Below are positions 95-7,662 of a DNA stretch of 7,662 nt, one piece after another. Position 1 is the first letter of the stretch; every line of letters starts with the position of its first letter. Origin of the DNA: a virus (lineage: Duplodnaviria; Heunggongvirae; Uroviricota; Caudoviricetes). The stretch is from the IMG/VR virus record IMGVR_UViG_2690316224_000006. One strand, 5' to 3'. The position numbers were made by a program, and so were the translations under genes. The notes below the pieces were generated by a model, which was not told where the DNA came from, did no database searches, and worked only from the letters and a program-made list of their open reading frames with translations.

Positions 95-298
95 TTACTG
101 GCAGCGTCTGAATTTATTCCCGTACCCGCCGTTATCCTTCGCCAGACCCGCCAGAACTAACTGAGTCAGTATTAACTGGCACCGGGCTTCGCTTACTCCG
201 GTAGTTCTCGTCATCATGCGTGGCGTTACCCACTTGTCAGCAGGTAAGAAATGAAGGACTGCGGCGGCGGTTTCTGTCATATCTTGCTGTTTTAGCAT
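95..298 (-). CDS. small hypothetical protein (67 aa from ATG at 298; the ORF extends to ATG at 322 for 75 aa); possible winged-helix fold
   Basis: Minus-strand ORF with TAA stop at 95-97. The internal ATG at 298 is preceded by AGAAGGGAAAAAGAC (SD-like, about 8 nt spacing), whereas the ATG at 322 has no convincing SD. The segment TTGVSEARCQLILTQLVLAGLAKD resembles a helix-turn-helix / winged-helix recognition region. No family is recognised with certainty. Confidence 0.35.
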   Translation of the reverse strand: MLKQQDMTETAAAVLHFLPADKWVTPRMMTRTTGVSEARCQLILTQLVLAGLAKDNGGYGNKFRRCQ

Positions 299-420
299 GT
301 CTTTTTCCCTTCTGGTTAACATGACATACCAATAACTCTTGTCTAAAAAGCCAGCAAGATAAAAAGTCAGTATTCACGGCCACCAGCGTGTTTACTGTAC
401 TGCACCAAGTTTACAGGTAC

Positions 421-446
421 AAAAAAACCGCTCAGTGGCGGGTTGC
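421..446 (-). terminator. putative rho-independent terminator downstream of the lipoprotein gene (second copy of the tR'-like motif)
   Basis: Plus strand reads AAAAAAACCGCTCAGTGGCGGGTTGC. On the minus strand this is a short GC stem (CCGC/GCGG, 6-nt loop) followed directly by TTTTTTT. It matches the 1097-1124 terminator at about 22 of 24 positions. The stem is only 4 bp, so it is weaker than copy A. Confidence 0.3.
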
Positions 447-521
447 TATCACAGCTATATATTTACTTATTATGCCGTTACTAACATTTATCTTCGACAT
501 ATAATCGAAAACAAGGTTTGC

Positions 522-947
522 TTAAAACTCTGCTTTCATTTTATCCGGGAATTTTTTATTTGCAGCATAATAACTACCAAGTACATAAGCGTTCATTTGC
601 TGCTCTACATCAACCCGACATGCCGCACTAGAACAAGCTCCACTGATAAGCCCAAAAGAACTCCCTTTAGCAGAGAGATCAGCTTTGATTTCCTCTACAG
701 TGTTTTTCCCCATAGCAACTACACACCCTGTCACAATATATCTAGCCTTCACATCATCCATGCTAAGGATAGTAGTTTTCGCAATTTTGCTGTATCCATC
801 ATTTTTATAAACATCCATGGCAAACGCACGGCAATCTGTATAATACGGACTTGCTTTAACTTGCGAATACTCAGGTAATTTCATACCTGCACAACCAACC
901 AAACAAAAACCTATCGCTGCTATTAATACCTTTTTCATTACAGTCAT
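522..947 (-). CDS. predicted lipoprotein of unknown function, moron-like (141 aa; alternative start ATG at 938 gives MKKVLIAAIGFCLVGC...)
   Basis: The N-terminus has a positively charged n-region (MKK), a hydrophobic h-region and a lipobox LVGC, with Ala rather than Asp at +2 after the lipidated Cys. The mature part contains four further Cys. The gene lies in a clearly AT-rich island (about 450-1080) between two terminator-like hairpins. TAA stop at 522-524. The SD is weak for both candidate starts. Confidence 0.6.
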   Translation of the reverse strand: MTVMKKVLIAAIGFCLVGCAGMKLPEYSQVKASPYYTDCRAFAMDVYKNDGYSKIAKTTILSMDDVKARYIVTGCVVAMGKNTVEEIKADLSAKGSSFGLISGACSSAACRVDVEQQMNAYVLGSYYAANKKFPDKMKAEF

Positions 948-1096
948 AACCTAGAAGCATCATTGAAACTAATTTATTAAATAATCATCGAGTTTCTGGA
1001 ATACAGACGTTAACCATCTCTCCAAAATCTAAAAGATAATAAGAAAAAATGTTTAACGCACCAATCCATTTCATAGTTTCATGAGACATCAGGCAC

Positions 1097-1124
1097 AAAA
1101 AAACCCGCTCAGCGGCGGGTTTTT
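1097..1124 (-). terminator. rho-independent (bidirectional) terminator, tR'-like, downstream of Q
   Basis: Plus strand reads AAAAAAA-CCCGC-TCAGCG-GCGGG-TTTTT. This is a 5-bp GC stem flanked by an A7 tract and a T5 tract, so on the minus strand the hairpin is followed by seven U. It sits about 105 nt downstream of the Q stop codon (1228). Confidence 0.6.
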
Positions 1125-1167
1125 GACATTTACCAACGGTAGACATACAAGGCCCATCGTTGAGAAA

Positions 1168-1196
1168 ATCTTATCCATATTTTTTGAAAAATGCAA
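1168..1196 (-). promoter_or_regulatory. candidate sigma70 late promoter (pR'-like) between Q and the terminator
   Basis: On the minus strand: TTGCAT (complement of 1191-1196), a 17-nt spacer, then TAAGAT (complement of 1168-1173). The match is 3/6 and 4/6 to the -35 and -10 consensus. Its position immediately after Q and before a terminator mirrors the lambda Q-pR'-tR' arrangement. Hand-scanned only, so this is weak. Confidence 0.25.
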
Positions 1197-1227: not shown

Positions 1228-1980
1228 CTATCTTGTCACTTTTCTCAATTGCGATTCAGCATACGCTTCTTCCTGCCAGCACTTTGTAACCAGTTTATTA
1301 ATAACGTCTGCATATCCTTTGTACCACTGATAATCCGTCAGGTCCGGTACCAGTTTCTGGACATGATGCCGCGCCAGTGTGGTTGGTAAACGGCTAAACC
1401 GGTTGCCATTGCAACGCCCACAAATCTTATAAACAGGCACACCATGAAGCCGGGTTCTTTTTTCATCCAGGACAATACCTTTACCCTTACACCCTCTGCA
1501 CGCTGTGCTGACTTCTCCCTTACCATGGCAATGCTGACATAGTTCCTTCACCCACTCTTCCTTGATAACAGATTCCCCGCTTCTGGAGTGTTTCACCACT
1601 TCGCGCAATACATTATGAAATCCAGTACCAGCACAATGCTCACAGCGAGCCTTACTTGCCGCAGACCTGGAATAATCAGCAAAGGCAAAATTCACAAGGT
1701 AAGGGATGATCTGTAACCGGGTTTCTTCACTCAATTTGTTCAATGTCGGGTTATCCAGTGCCATCGCGTAATTGAGCAGACCTTCAATCGCAAATTGAGG
1801 ATCCTGAACACCAACTTTTGCCAGGAATAAGGCAAACCCAAGCGGTGCTTTCGACTGCACCATCCCCTGCGCAGCCATCACATCCGTAATCGTTAAACCA
1901 CCTGAGCCTGTCACCGGTGCGTCATCGCTCAATTTTGGAGATTTTGGGGAGTAATATTTTGGTAAGGCTTCAAGGTTCAT
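1228..1980 (-). CDS. late-gene antitermination protein Q (250 aa, lambdoid Q family with a Cys-rich zinc-binding region)
   Basis: ATG at 1980 is preceded by GGAGAACGAGC (SD). The ORF track's longer form begins at an upstream GTG at 2022. The N-terminus MNLEALPKYYSPKSPKLSDDAPVTGSGG... is recognised from memory as a prophage Q antiterminator. It contains four CxxCxGxx-type cysteine pairs (CEHCAGTG, CQHCHGKG, CRGCKGKG, CGRCNGNR). Synteny supports the call: rusA ... DUF968, Q, then a terminator. Confidence 0.8.
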   Translation of the reverse strand: MNLEALPKYYSPKSPKLSDDAPVTGSGGLTITDVMAAQGMVQSKAPLGFALFLAKVGVQDPQFAIEGLLNYAMALDNPTLNKLSEETRLQIIPYLVNFAFADYSRSAASKARCEHCAGTGFHNVLREVVKHSRSGESVIKEEWVKELCQHCHGKGEVSTACRGCKGKGIVLDEKRTRLHGVPVYKICGRCNGNRFSRLPTTLARHHVQKLVPDLTDYQWYKGYADVINKLVTKCWQEEAYAESQLRKVTR

Positions 1981-5672: not shown

Positions 5673-6089
5673 TCACCCCCTGAATCCTGCCGGGATCTGG
5701 CTGTAGTCCACGTTGTCGTAACTGGCTTTGAAGTACGGGTCCTCACGTCTGGCTGCAGATACCGCAGGAACTTCCCAGGATTCTTCGAAATGACGATCCG
5801 GACCAAAGAACGTGACAGCCTGTTTCACAAATTGTGTGCCGCTGTTACCCATCGCAGATACCCAGCCCGCGTAGCGTTTCACACCTTCCAGCATGGTTTC
5901 GGGGTTTACCCCCTCATTCAAACGGGCTTTCCAGGCTTTGAAGGCTGCAGATTTTGAATTGCCACCAGCACGTTTGGGATATACCAGCCATGCCTGCTCA
6001 AACTCCGGAGAGTATTCCGGTCGGTTTGAACGAACTCGCACGGACTCATCAACTGATGCACCAACAGCTATTGGTTCATTGACTGGTTC
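5673..6089 (-). CDS. replication initiation protein, C-terminal part (same gene as 6098-6696; broken by an assembly gap and duplicated flank)
   Basis: The open frame runs from the gap to TGA at 5673-5675. Its first 38 aa (RVRSNRPEYSPEFEQAWLVYPKRAGG...NPET) repeat the last residues of the upstream fragment, so the two fragments join in frame if one 197-bp copy plus the Ns is removed, giving about 272 aa in total. Confidence 0.6.
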   Translation of the reverse strand, partial: EPVNEPIAVGASVDESVRVRSNRPEYSPEFEQAWLVYPKRAGGNSKSAAFKAWKARLNEGVNPETMLEGVKRYAGWVSAMGNSGTQFVKQAVTFFGPDRHFEESWEVPAVSAARREDPYFKASYDNVDYSQIPAGFRG

Positions 6090-6294
6090 NNNNNNNNATG
6101 GTTTCGGGGTTTACCCCCTCATTCAAACGGGCTTTCCAGGCTTTGAAGGCTGCAGATTTTGAATTACCACCAGCACGTTTGGGATATGCCAGCCATGCCT
6201 GCTCAAACTCCGGAGAGTATTCCGGCCGGTTTGAACGAACTCGCACGGACTCATCAACTGATGCACCAACAGCTATTGGTTCATTGACTGGTTC
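5893..6294. repeat. 197-bp direct duplication (5893-6089 and 6098-6294, 3 mismatches) flanking an 8-N gap; probable scaffold-join artifact
   Basis: Directly read: the two copies are identical except for three substitutions (g/a, a/g, t/c). The N run at 6090-6097 separates them. Both copies encode the same peptide, with one V/A difference. Confidence 0.9.
6090..6097. other. assembly gap (NNNNNNNN)
   Basis: Eight ambiguous bases inside a coding region. Confidence 0.95.
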
Positions 6295-6696
6295 TTTGAC
6301 TGGTTCAAAAGAGTGACTGGTTCTGGGTGAATCTCCTGCACTACCCCCTGGTGCAACTCCTGCACTACCTGGTGAATTTGCTGCACCAGATAGTGAATTA
6401 TTTGCACTACCCCCTAGTGAATCTCCTGCACCATCCAGATGAAGGAGATAGATATTACTTGAGTTACCTTTTTCACCTTTCCGGGTGACTTTTTTTACCA
6501 GCCCGGACTCACAAAGGGCCGCAATATGATTCATCACAGAACGTTTGCTAATCTCGCACTGGTCAGCAATATGCTGGTAGCTGGGCCAGCACTCACCCTG
6601 ATCGCTGGCATTATCAGCCAGCTTGATCAGAACCAGTTTTCGCAATGGATTACCCACTCGAATTTTCATCGCTTTAACCATCAGCTCCATACTCAT
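6098..6696 (-). CDS. replication initiation protein, N-terminal part (HTH domain plus Gly/Ser/Ala-rich linker), O-like initiator
   Basis: ATG at 6696 is preceded by GGAGGTGCAGC (SD) and overlaps the upstream stop (ATGA). The N-terminus LRKLVLIKLADNASDQGECWPSYQHIADQCEISKRSVMNHIAALCESGLVKK is a typical phage replication-protein HTH of the HTH_36 type. The ORF-track stop at 6076 is an artifact of reading through the Ns. Confidence 0.65.
6285..6431. repeat. iteron-like short direct repeats inside the replication-initiator linker region (candidate origin)
   Basis: TGACTGGTTC occurs at 6285-6294, 6297-6306 and 6314-6323, and again at 6080-6089 in the duplicated copy. GTGAATCTCCTGCAC occurs at 6327-6341 and 6417-6431. 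The motif TGCACTACC(CCCT) recurs at about 6337, 6361 and 6403. A moderately AT-rich stretch follows at about 6440-6480. Confidence 0.35.
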
Positions 6697-6929
6697 GCTG
6701 CACCTCCGAGATGCTTCATGTTTTTTCCGGAGCGAAAGGCTATAAGCGGCATACTGACGCGGTAATTACGGCCAAGCGGTTCACAAATCACCTTCTGGCA
6801 TTCACGGTCAACCAGGCTAACACGTAGAACATGCCCTGCAGGTGTGGTGTACCACTGCCCAACTGTAGGAATTGATATTTTTTTACGCTGAAGTAAACGG
6901 TGAATATTGAGGATCAACGGATTAAGCAT
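6693..6929 (-). CDS. small phage protein, DUF4222-like (78 aa)
   Basis: ATG at 6929 is preceded by GGAGGGCATCGTC (SD) and overlaps the upstream gene by 8 nt. Its stop overlaps the replication gene start (ATGA). The pattern G..Y....G..L.V...(9)...V...(5)...G..Y..S.P...F resembles small prophage DUF4222 proteins as remembered. Confidence 0.5.
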   Translation of the reverse strand: MLNPLILNIHRLLQRKKISIPTVGQWYTTPAGHVLRVSLVDRECQKVICEPLGRNYRVSMPLIAFRSGKNMKHLGGAA

Positions 6930-7566
6930 GACGATGCCCTCCGCTGATATTCAGGAGACGGTGAATATGAAGATTAGCCTTATCCGCCAAACGAATACGT
7001 TCAGCCTGCAAGTTAAGAAGGGTTTCTACCAGAAGTTGATGCGCCTGCGGATCTGAAAGAGTTACCTTGCGCAGAGCACGTAGTGCTGTTGTTACATAAC
7101 TGAGTTTATGTAAGTCTTCATCATTCAGACGAGTGAGGGCTGGGACAGTAGCCATGATGGCAGCCTCCTTGATCGGTGAAATACTTCCACCACCGGAAAC
7201 GCCAATTTCGCTGGTGGTGAACTGAACGGGGTTGGCGTAACCGGTGATCAAGGAAACCGGCGCATCTTTCGATGCCCCCGCCCAGCCCACCATAACTTTG
7301 ATGTGAGCAAATGCGGACGATAAAAAAGACGCTGGCGCGTCATATATCGCCTTGATCAATTCCAGGACGCCAATCCCGGCACCCGCTTTATAAGGTGCCT
7401 GAACAGTGTAACGTCCCGGAATGGCAGAATCAATGTGCTGGTGGTCCTTCACACTCAACAAAATCACGCCTGAATTTCCACAAAGGACTAAAGCACTCAT
7501 GCGGGTAGTCTTTGCGAAGATAGATAACGCGCTGTGTTTCTGGCTCCCAACGAATAACATGAACAT
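6922..7566 (-). CDS. hypothetical phage early protein (214 aa from ATG at 7566; the ORF extends to GTG at 7623); possible Rossmann-like fold
   Basis: A long minus-strand ORF in the same operon. The ATG at 7566 is preceded by GAAGAGGACTTT (SD, about 5 nt spacing), while the GTG at 7623 has no SD. Gly-rich loops (KAGAGIGV, GVSGGGSIS) and a PVSLITGYA segment give a weak resemblance to DprA/SLOG-type nucleotide-binding folds. No confident family assignment. Confidence 0.5.
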   Translation of the reverse strand: MFMLFVGSQKHSALSIFAKTTRMSALVLCGNSGVILLSVKDHQHIDSAIPGRYTVQAPYKAGAGIGVLELIKAIYDAPASFLSSAFAHIKVMVGWAGASKDAPVSLITGYANPVQFTTSEIGVSGGGSISPIKEAAIMATVPALTRLNDEDLHKLSYVTTALRALRKVTLSDPQAHQLLVETLLNLQAERIRLADKANLHIHRLLNISGGHRHA

Positions 7567-7662
7567 AAAGTCCTCTTCCGTCACTAAACCAGCGGTTAAG
7601 TTCCTGCACAACTCGCCCCCCACAGTCAGGTAAAGTTCTCTGTGGTTACTTACAGCCAGGTG

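Follow-up and report, generated by a model that had tools for sequence, protein, structure and literature searches.

We analyzed a 7,662-nucleotide (nt) stretch of viral DNA (IMG/VR record IMGVR_UViG_2690316224_000006, Caudoviricetes), referred to as the window in the following, with respect to the AT-rich interval that lies downstream of its Q antiterminator gene and carries a single lipoprotein gene between two near-identical hairpins. We propose that this interval is a moron, that is, horizontally acquired cargo in the late-operon leader of an Escherichia coli lambdoid prophage of the mEp460/Ayreon/SfV kind, and we assign this reading a probability of roughly 0.78. The anatomy of the locus, the foreign composition of the interval, relatives with an empty site, the mobility of the gene and the purifying selection acting on it directly support this proposal. 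All credible genes of the window are located on the minus strand according to the list of open reading frames (ORFs), where the order is Q, the late promoter pR', hairpin A, the lipoprotein gene, hairpin B and an orf47-like gene. Judged from relatives, a methylase gene and the lysis genes come after the orf47-like gene, beyond the window. The features are:

1228–1980, minus strand: Q antiterminator gene, Qλ family; 250 amino acids from the ATG at 1980 (the mechanical ORF extends to 2022)
1168–1196, minus strand: late promoter pR'; -35 TTGCAT (1196–1191), 17-nt spacer, -10 TAAGAT (1173–1168)
1156–1161, minus strand: predicted transcription start and sigma-dependent pause element AACGAT, then GGG, by comparison with λ
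1097–1124, minus strand: hairpin A, the tR' terminator; AAAAACCCGC-CGCUGA-GCGGGUUUUUUU
1036–1064, minus strand: candidate promoter of the cassette, as read from the sequence; TTGGTG (1064–1059), 17 nt, TATTAT (1041–1036)
522–947, minus strand: lipoprotein gene; 141 amino acids, or 138 from the ATG at 938; lipobox LVGC with Cys19 at 902–891
447–1096, no strand: AT-rich island, the cassette between both hairpins, delimited by GC content and absent from relatives with an empty site
421–446, minus strand: hairpin B, the second terminator copy, from the repeat search; AACCCGC-CACUGA-GCGGUUUUUUU, stem weakened
95–322, minus strand: orf47-like small gene; 75 amino acids, phrog_331, homologue of SfV orf47

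The two hairpins bordering the interval were recovered by a repeat search, which aligned positions 421–444 with 1098–1121 at 22 of 24 identical positions. When copy A was used as the query with three mismatches allowed, these two sites were the only matches in the window and none of 200 dinucleotide shuffles gave one, confirming the pair of near-identical hairpins reported by the initial annotation. On visual inspection, about 31 nt are repeated (414–444 vs. 1091–1121), with GT[G/A]CCTG past the U-tract also in common. In context, hairpin A folded with -17 kcal/mol (z = -3.55), which was equalled by none of 200 shuffles, and the core alone reached -10.7 kcal/mol; with its G+C-rich stem-loop and U-tract, hairpin A has the properties of an intrinsic terminator. 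It is annotated as a terminator in SfV, and both hairpins are marked as such by the depositors of Ayreon. The view that both hairpins act as terminators held for A, while B is weak in the window. Here copy B reads GCGG where relatives have GCGGG, a G-to-U change in the 3' stem arm (A at plus-strand position 427, C in relatives) that reduces the stem to four pairs. Its folding energy was -5.7 kcal/mol, compared to -10.7 kcal/mol for the usual form, with z-scores of 0.12 in 46 nt of context and -1.95 for the 24-mer alone. Because copy B is intact in relatives and no more than 2 of 205 E. coli genomes match the 71 nt around the window's copy at ≥99%, we regard the change as a substitution almost restricted to this window, which could be a real leaky variant of the terminator or an error of sequencing beside the homopolymer.

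The unit upstream of the interval closely follows that of λ. The Q protein matched Pfam PF03589 (E = 1e-53) and contains a DnaJ-type zinc finger in addition; it belongs to phrog_127 (anti-termination protein Q-like) and is annotated as Q or ydfT in relatives. PF03589 has been named the Qλ family (PMC9388147). The promoter pR' was not picked up by a promoter consensus scan of the window and was read by eye from the sequence. Alignment to the fetched λ sequence gave TTGCAT-17-TAAGAT-6-AACGATGGG for the window and TTGACT-17-TAAATT-6-AACGATGGG for λ, with AACGATGGG starting 6 nt past the -10 hexamer in the identical register. Since the promoter architecture and AACGATGGG agree with λ, we assign pR' to the λ type, including its σ-dependent pause element, for which λ biology suggests the pausing role (PMC9388147). 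The promoter is conserved in the phages SfV and vB_EcoM-720R4 (720R4 in the following) and in the Shiga toxin (Stx) 1 phage Lys8385Vzw. Hairpin A begins 40 nt beyond the AACGATGGG region, and from the predicted start near 1161 a transcript of about 65 nt (1161–1097), ended by hairpin A, is predicted. We identify hairpin A as tR' because this strong terminator fold lies directly downstream of a λ-type pR'. With a PF03589 Q, a promoter with pause element and a downstream intrinsic terminator, the region has the arrangement of a Qλ-type late antitermination unit.

The predicted transcript (1097–1161, minus strand) would form a 5' stem-loop in addition to the terminator hairpin, and we take it to be analogous to the λ 6S RNA and the StxS small RNA of Stx phages. 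An Rfam search over 1095–1165 gave leader-like matches below threshold only, and no match above gathering score was found in the cassette interval.

The drop in guanine-plus-cytosine (GC) content that had been noted for the interval was substantial. Positions 447–1096 have a GC content of 36.0%, in comparison to 51.6% in the rest of the window (chi-square, P = 3e-14), and the island lies at z = -5.4 against all 650-nt windows to its right. GC content at third codon positions (GC3) is 29.6% in the lipoprotein gene and 45–64% in the neighboring genes. As the annotation had stated, a single lipoprotein gene (522–947, minus strand, with lipobox and conserved cysteines) is the cargo downstream of Q and tR', and it is the only credible gene of the island. 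Two further ORFs are probably spurious: a 147-amino acid plus-strand ORF (435–878) is antisense to the conserved lipoprotein gene, and a 53-amino acid ORF (985–1146, minus strand) passes through the terminator hairpin A. Short ORFs within the interval of the latter are annotated as hypothetical proteins in Ayreon and a Stx2k phage. The lipoprotein gene is a real gene under purifying selection, since the ratio of nonsynonymous to synonymous substitution rates was 0.08–0.18 against the Salmonella, second Salmonella-type and Buttiauxella homologues. Its lipobox cysteine and four further cysteines are invariant across eight homologues of 54–98% identity.

A candidate σ70 promoter of the cassette, TTGGTG-17-TATTAT (1064–1036), appears weak from its sequence. 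We propose it because it is kept in both the E. coli and the Salmonella cassette: the upstream region of the Salmonella cassette aligns with the window from the hairpin through the start codon and presents TTGGTA-18-TATCAT as the counterpart, within a spacer of about 60% identity.

The same locus was found both with and without the cassette. The segment 1–1400 is 98% identical in mEp460, Ayreon and 16 Stx2c-converting phages, and reaches up to 99.9% identity in E. coli chromosomes. In SfV and 720R4, the same Q and pR' are followed by a single hairpin and the orf47 homologue, with no lipoprotein gene in between, and about 20 IMG/VR contigs among the matches listed share this empty arrangement. 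Relatives carrying a single terminator and no lipoprotein gene, which the initial annotation had suggested looking for, therefore exist. In 720R4, the junction consists of the left flank, a hairpin with the copy-B loop and then GTACCTGTAAACTTGG, which equals the window minus 677 bp. Among 5,426 complete E. coli genomes, the cassette alone was present at ≥95% identity, always as a whole, in 215 (about 4%), and its flanks were present in about 1,900. An empty-site query was matched over ≥80% of its length in about 460 genomes; filled sites whose flanks were joined across the insert are part of this count. In the IMG/VR sample together with the reference loci, at least 22 junctions of Qλ-pR', hairpin and orf47 stand against at least 12 with the cassette. 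The interval is thus additional DNA separating genes that lie side by side in relatives, deviates in composition and ends in its own terminator (B, weakened here), so that the moron architecture proposed at the outset is upheld.

Homologues of the lipoprotein gene are located in unrelated surroundings. In a Salmonella prophage, a 76% identical homologue lies directly after a different Q (Q21/DUF1133-type; weak PF06530 match, DUF1133) and before holin genes. A 66% identical homologue is found close to KilR and RecE-like genes in the early-left region of a prophage, a 54% identical one on the Buttiauxella plasmid CP110081.1, and a distant one amid insertion sequence (IS) elements, a group II intron reverse transcriptase and a resolvase. 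The contexts of the distant homologues display mobility and gave no functional clue. On the Buttiauxella plasmid, a second small lipoprotein gene (L010, 4446–4745; 99 amino acids, lipobox LSGC) lies 10 nt further on, which suggests a two-lipoprotein operon.

These distributions bear on the best-surviving alternative, namely that the lipoprotein gene and both hairpins are ancestral and that the single-hairpin relatives arose by deletion via the direct repeats. The 31-nt direct repeat is a suitable deletion substrate, the 720R4-type empty site looks exactly as recombination from hairpin to hairpin would leave it, and the SfV-type empty site retains the copy-A hairpin with GTGCCT(T)GATGT, which also starts the cassette side in the window. 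An ancestral core gene is difficult to reconcile, however, with an island of 36% GC and 30% GC3 in a 52% GC background, with a cassette found in 215 genomes as opposed to flanks in about 1,900, with homologues in unrelated genomic contexts, and with a slot that houses many other cargos. We therefore consider the ancestral explanation improbable for the locus as a whole, although individual losses of the cassette by repeat recombination are likely.

The initial annotation had further interpreted the duplicated terminator as the footprint of an insertion at or next to tR'. The duplication is real but more than a simple fresh scar, as the hairpin joins many modules in many phages and also precedes the Salmonella cassette, which lies behind another Q family. 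An exact 24-mer scan of viral contigs for the hairpin returned at least 120 stretches (IMG/VR loci L011–L130), and with the reference loci the 24-mer AACCCGCC[A/G]CTGAGCGG[G/T]TTTTTT occurs at least 138 times, in at least 36 distinct upstream and at least 31 distinct downstream contexts of 300 nt. Among the matches listed, the orf47 module is joined via the hairpin to three different adjacent sequences (the Qλ-type pR', the cassette 3' end and the CCACACAACTTA segment), and identity breaks at both hairpin edges. The segment beginning ...CCACACAACTTA comes after Q genes of the Q21 family (PF06530) and assorted cargo without an assigned function, which is often encoded on the opposite strand, and the Qλ-pR' module joins orf47, the cassette and at least two other downstream sequences. 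Other 24-mer sites follow further Q types, follow small secreted proteins that precede baseplate genes, separate tail genes from one another or precede an endolysin gene. Hairpin-like matches (≥80% to a 30-nt query) occurred in 2,135 of the 5,426 E. coli genomes (median copy number, one), which marks the hairpin as accessory and not as part of the core set of chromosomal terminators. The copy preceding the Salmonella cassette is 100% identical, compared to about 60% identity in the spacer and a synonymous divergence (dS) of 1.7 in the gene. Loop variants sharing the stem exist, as expected of a structure-constrained terminator. Because the same hairpin joins many different modules, the duplicated terminator looks less like a fresh insertion scar and more like the joining of modules that bear the same portable terminator.

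In phages with a Q21-family Q (L004, PhiR40_1; L005, the cdtI phage; L015, L029, L049, L051 and L065), other uncharacterized cargo, often on the opposite strand, lies between Q and the hairpin with orf47. It comprises a 148-amino acid lipoprotein, single proteins of 214, 280 or 310 amino acids, and pairs of a protein of about 240–310 amino acids with a multi-pass membrane protein of about 150–180 amino acids. We considered the slot as a defense hotspot and set this idea aside, as the cargos gave no PADLOC match, and Pfam returned DUF6731 and the Q21-family Q only; these cargos are candidate defense or conversion modules.

The behavior of the hairpin raises the further alternative that the hairpins delimit an actively mobile element, with a boundary recognized by a recombinase in the manner of attC, and that this element carries the lipoprotein gene among its cargos. 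The many contexts of the exact 24-mer (at least 36 upstream and 31 downstream), the break of homology at both hairpin edges, and the complete conservation of the hairpin before the Salmonella cassette next to a spacer of about 60% identity and a gene dS of 1.7 would all agree with such an element. However, the hairpin has no linked recombinase or transposase, none lies within or beside the cassette, and target-site duplications are absent. The locus lacks the terminal inverted repeats of a transposon or IS and an attC site with linked enzyme, as an integron cassette would have. Moreover, the repeats are direct and have the shape of a functional terminator, a complete terminator is also present at empty sites, and the loop variants with the same stem are what a constraint on RNA structure predicts. 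In lambdoid late operons, intra-operon terminators of unknown role have been described before (PMC8022706). Ordinary homologous recombination between prophages that share a host would account for the pattern, and we regard an active element as quite unlikely.

The remaining alternative, that the lipoprotein is a regular part of the lysis cassette such as an outer-membrane spanin or a lysis regulator, would fit its place ahead of the lysis genes on the late transcript and its predicted outer-membrane anchoring like that of Rz1, yet it is very unlikely, given that relatives with the same lysis module lack the lipoprotein and possess their own Rz and Rz1, that orf47, methylase and another terminator stand between the gene and the holin gene, that homologues occur far from any lysis genes, and that the modeled helical protein of about 120 amino acids differs from the short Rz1.

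Returning to the moron interpretation, we infer promoter activity and Q read-through from the arrangement of the locus as follows. In the lysogen, polymerase starting at pR' would halt at hairpin A and yield the ~65-nt transcript, while any lipoprotein expression would come from the cassette's own weak promoter and end at hairpin B. Upon induction, Q would load at the pR' pause, and polymerase would pass both hairpins into orf47, the methylase gene, any stx genes and the lysis genes. The lipoprotein would then be the first late product after induction, a place taken by Stx in the Stx phages. Recombination using the hairpin as a homology patch most likely introduced the cassette and could remove it again.

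Several points weigh against this interpretation. The -35 hexamer of the candidate promoter agrees with the consensus at three of six positions, and the promoter falls below the scan threshold. With hairpin B being weak in the window, the cassette may be uninsulated from orf47 in this particular genome. Family, sequence and fold searches for the lipoprotein all turned out empty or generic, so that they back no specific function. Further, a direct repeat also promotes deletion, and therefore gain as opposed to loss is unprovable for any single lineage.

The initial annotation had also compared the position to the Q-tR' locus of Stx phages, where the toxin genes reside. This analogy is literally correct, because stx1 occupies the slot in Lys8385Vzw and the cassette stands upstream of stx2 elsewhere. 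In Lys8385Vzw, a 97% identical Q and the same pR' are followed by the loop-variant hairpin AACCCGC-CGATGC-GCGGGTTTTTTTGTACC and then by stx1AB. The Stx2c phages have the order Q, tR', lipoprotein gene (100% identical protein), hairpin, orf47, methylase, tRNA-Met, tRNA-Arg and stx2cAB, and the Stx2k phage is arranged like them. The lipoprotein gene is the first gene past tR' in the stx2-bearing late unit of Stx2c and Stx2k phages, and because of this first position, its product would be expected to be co-induced with the toxin there. An exclusion, masking or envelope role, if true, would bear on the phage ecology of Shiga toxin-producing E. coli.

What lies after the island requires a refinement. 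A further gene does follow, as had been stated, but it is not a core late gene: the orf47-like gene, labeled as a TrmB-family regulator in the Stx2k phage, opens a downstream module that always comes after the hairpin, and this gene and the methylase beyond it are variable cargo themselves.

We also investigated the lipoprotein itself. By inspection, its N-terminus (MTVMKKVLIAAIGFCLVGC-AG...) has a classical signal with a basic N-region, a hydrophobic core and a lipobox that agrees with [LVI][ASTVI][GAS]C. The segment concerned reads MKKVLIAAIGFCLVGC, and Cys19 is also kept in the distant homologue P0015 (LSGC). According to the Lol +2 rule, lipoproteins with Ala or Ser at position +2 and no Asp retention signal are sorted to the outer membrane. 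Outer-membrane sorting is predicted here because Ala occupies +2 and an Asp retention signal is missing, and the product is probably a helical, disulfide-containing protein that is lipid-anchored in the outer membrane and faces the periplasm. The structure prediction gave a helical bundle (predicted local distance difference test score, 79), for which fold searches returned no meaningful match. Single-sequence and profile searches yielded no match in Pfam, NCBIfam, PADLOC or PDB apart from a spurious one to uL14m (E = 0.01), and these databases revealed no similarity to a toxin, in agreement with the earlier remark that the cargo is not a recognized one. The only PHROGs match is phrog_4748, of unknown function. 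The family is tiny, with nine clusters by word-indexed search and eight by an exhaustive HMMER profile search of 1.84 billion representatives, and our literature searches retrieved no study on this lipoprotein. Neither sequence nor fold comparison revealed similarity to known exclusion or conversion lipoproteins (Bor, Cor and Llp) or to defense systems. The lipoprotein thus belongs to an orphan family without relatives in sequence or fold. Tentatively, and by analogy with Cor, Llp and Bor, we favor a role in envelope-level conversion, e.g., receptor masking or superinfection exclusion. A much bolder notion is that the 24–31-nt hairpin AACCCGCC[A/G]CTGAGCGGGTTTTTT(GTRCCTG) would be a portable, sequence-specific junction for the exchange of cargo and modules among enterobacterial phages, and that this junction would deliver the orphan lipoprotein as an envelope factor of a new kind, co-expressed with Stx2c and Stx2k upon induction; we consider this combination unlikely.

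The rest of the window corresponds to the early-right region of a lambdoid prophage. By Pfam, it encodes a helix-turn-helix replication-initiator-like protein, a PerC-like protein, Dam, a protein with a LexA DNA-binding domain, RusA, KilA-N and DUF968 proteins, with the Q antiterminator as the last gene. At 5893–6294, a run of eight Ns (6090–6097) is flanked by two copies of a 197-nt block with 98% identity, and the replication-initiator-like gene is split into two ORFs (5673–6041 and 6076–6696). This duplication looks like a scaffolding or assembly artifact rather than biology. Within the same gene, three imperfect copies of a 39-nt unit lie 24 and 42 nt apart (6327–6431). They may be origin iterons, by likeness to the λ O gene, which contains such iterons. 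Rfam matches above gathering score were obtained for the C4 antisense RNA (7210–7297, minus strand, 82 bits) and the Hfq-binding RNA isrK (7322–7398, minus strand, 64 bits). Both overlap an ORF at 6922–7623 bearing an Ash-family domain (PF10554), and the region looks like an antisense-controlled immunity or anti-repressor module of the P1/P7 or Gifsy kind.

Because moron architecture is already textbook knowledge, the value of this locus is that of a clean example, which combines sites with and without the cassette, the two terminators, a λ-like pR' and a sister phage bearing stx1 in the same slot. The conserved orphan lipoprotein, present in about 4% of complete E. coli genomes, could repay further work. 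The same holds for the identical terminator at many module junctions, as a concrete case for studying how such short conserved sequences might steer mosaic recombination and the turnover of morons in lambdoid phages.

Morons were defined for HK97 and HK022, the HK97 gp15 moron being one example (PMC3594210), and a low-GC moron between Q and the lysis cassette has been described for phage SfIV (PMC3851460). Like these, the cassette of the window is extra DNA of deviant GC content with a terminator at its end and a candidate promoter in front. Gene content differs: the SfIV moron carries an IS1 transposase, whereas the cassette has no mobility gene, and in contrast to the HK97/HK022 and SfIV morons, the terminator closing the cassette is a copy of tR' itself.

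With the pR'/6S RNA/tR' unit of λ, the window shares the promoter architecture, an identical AACGATGGG, a PF03589 Q and a downstream intrinsic terminator. The terminated pR'-tR' transcript of λ is 194 nt long, while the one predicted for the window comprises about 65 nt, and the Q of the window has 250 amino acids and a DnaJ-type zinc finger.

Phage-encoded outer-membrane lipoproteins are known from λ (bor), φ80 and N15 (cor) and T5 (llp). All of these and the product of the window are small phage-encoded lipoproteins and non-essential cargo, which makes them models for the proposed role. In contrast to them, the lipoprotein has no sequence link by Pfam, PHROG, NCBIfam or PDB, is predicted as an unmatched helical bundle and occupies a position unlike that of bor or cor.

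The closest parallel in position is formed by the stx genes. While the cargo here is a lipoprotein without similarity to any toxin and a second terminator closes the cassette, both are cargo placed after Q, pR' and tR', which would be transcribed by Q-modified polymerase upon induction.

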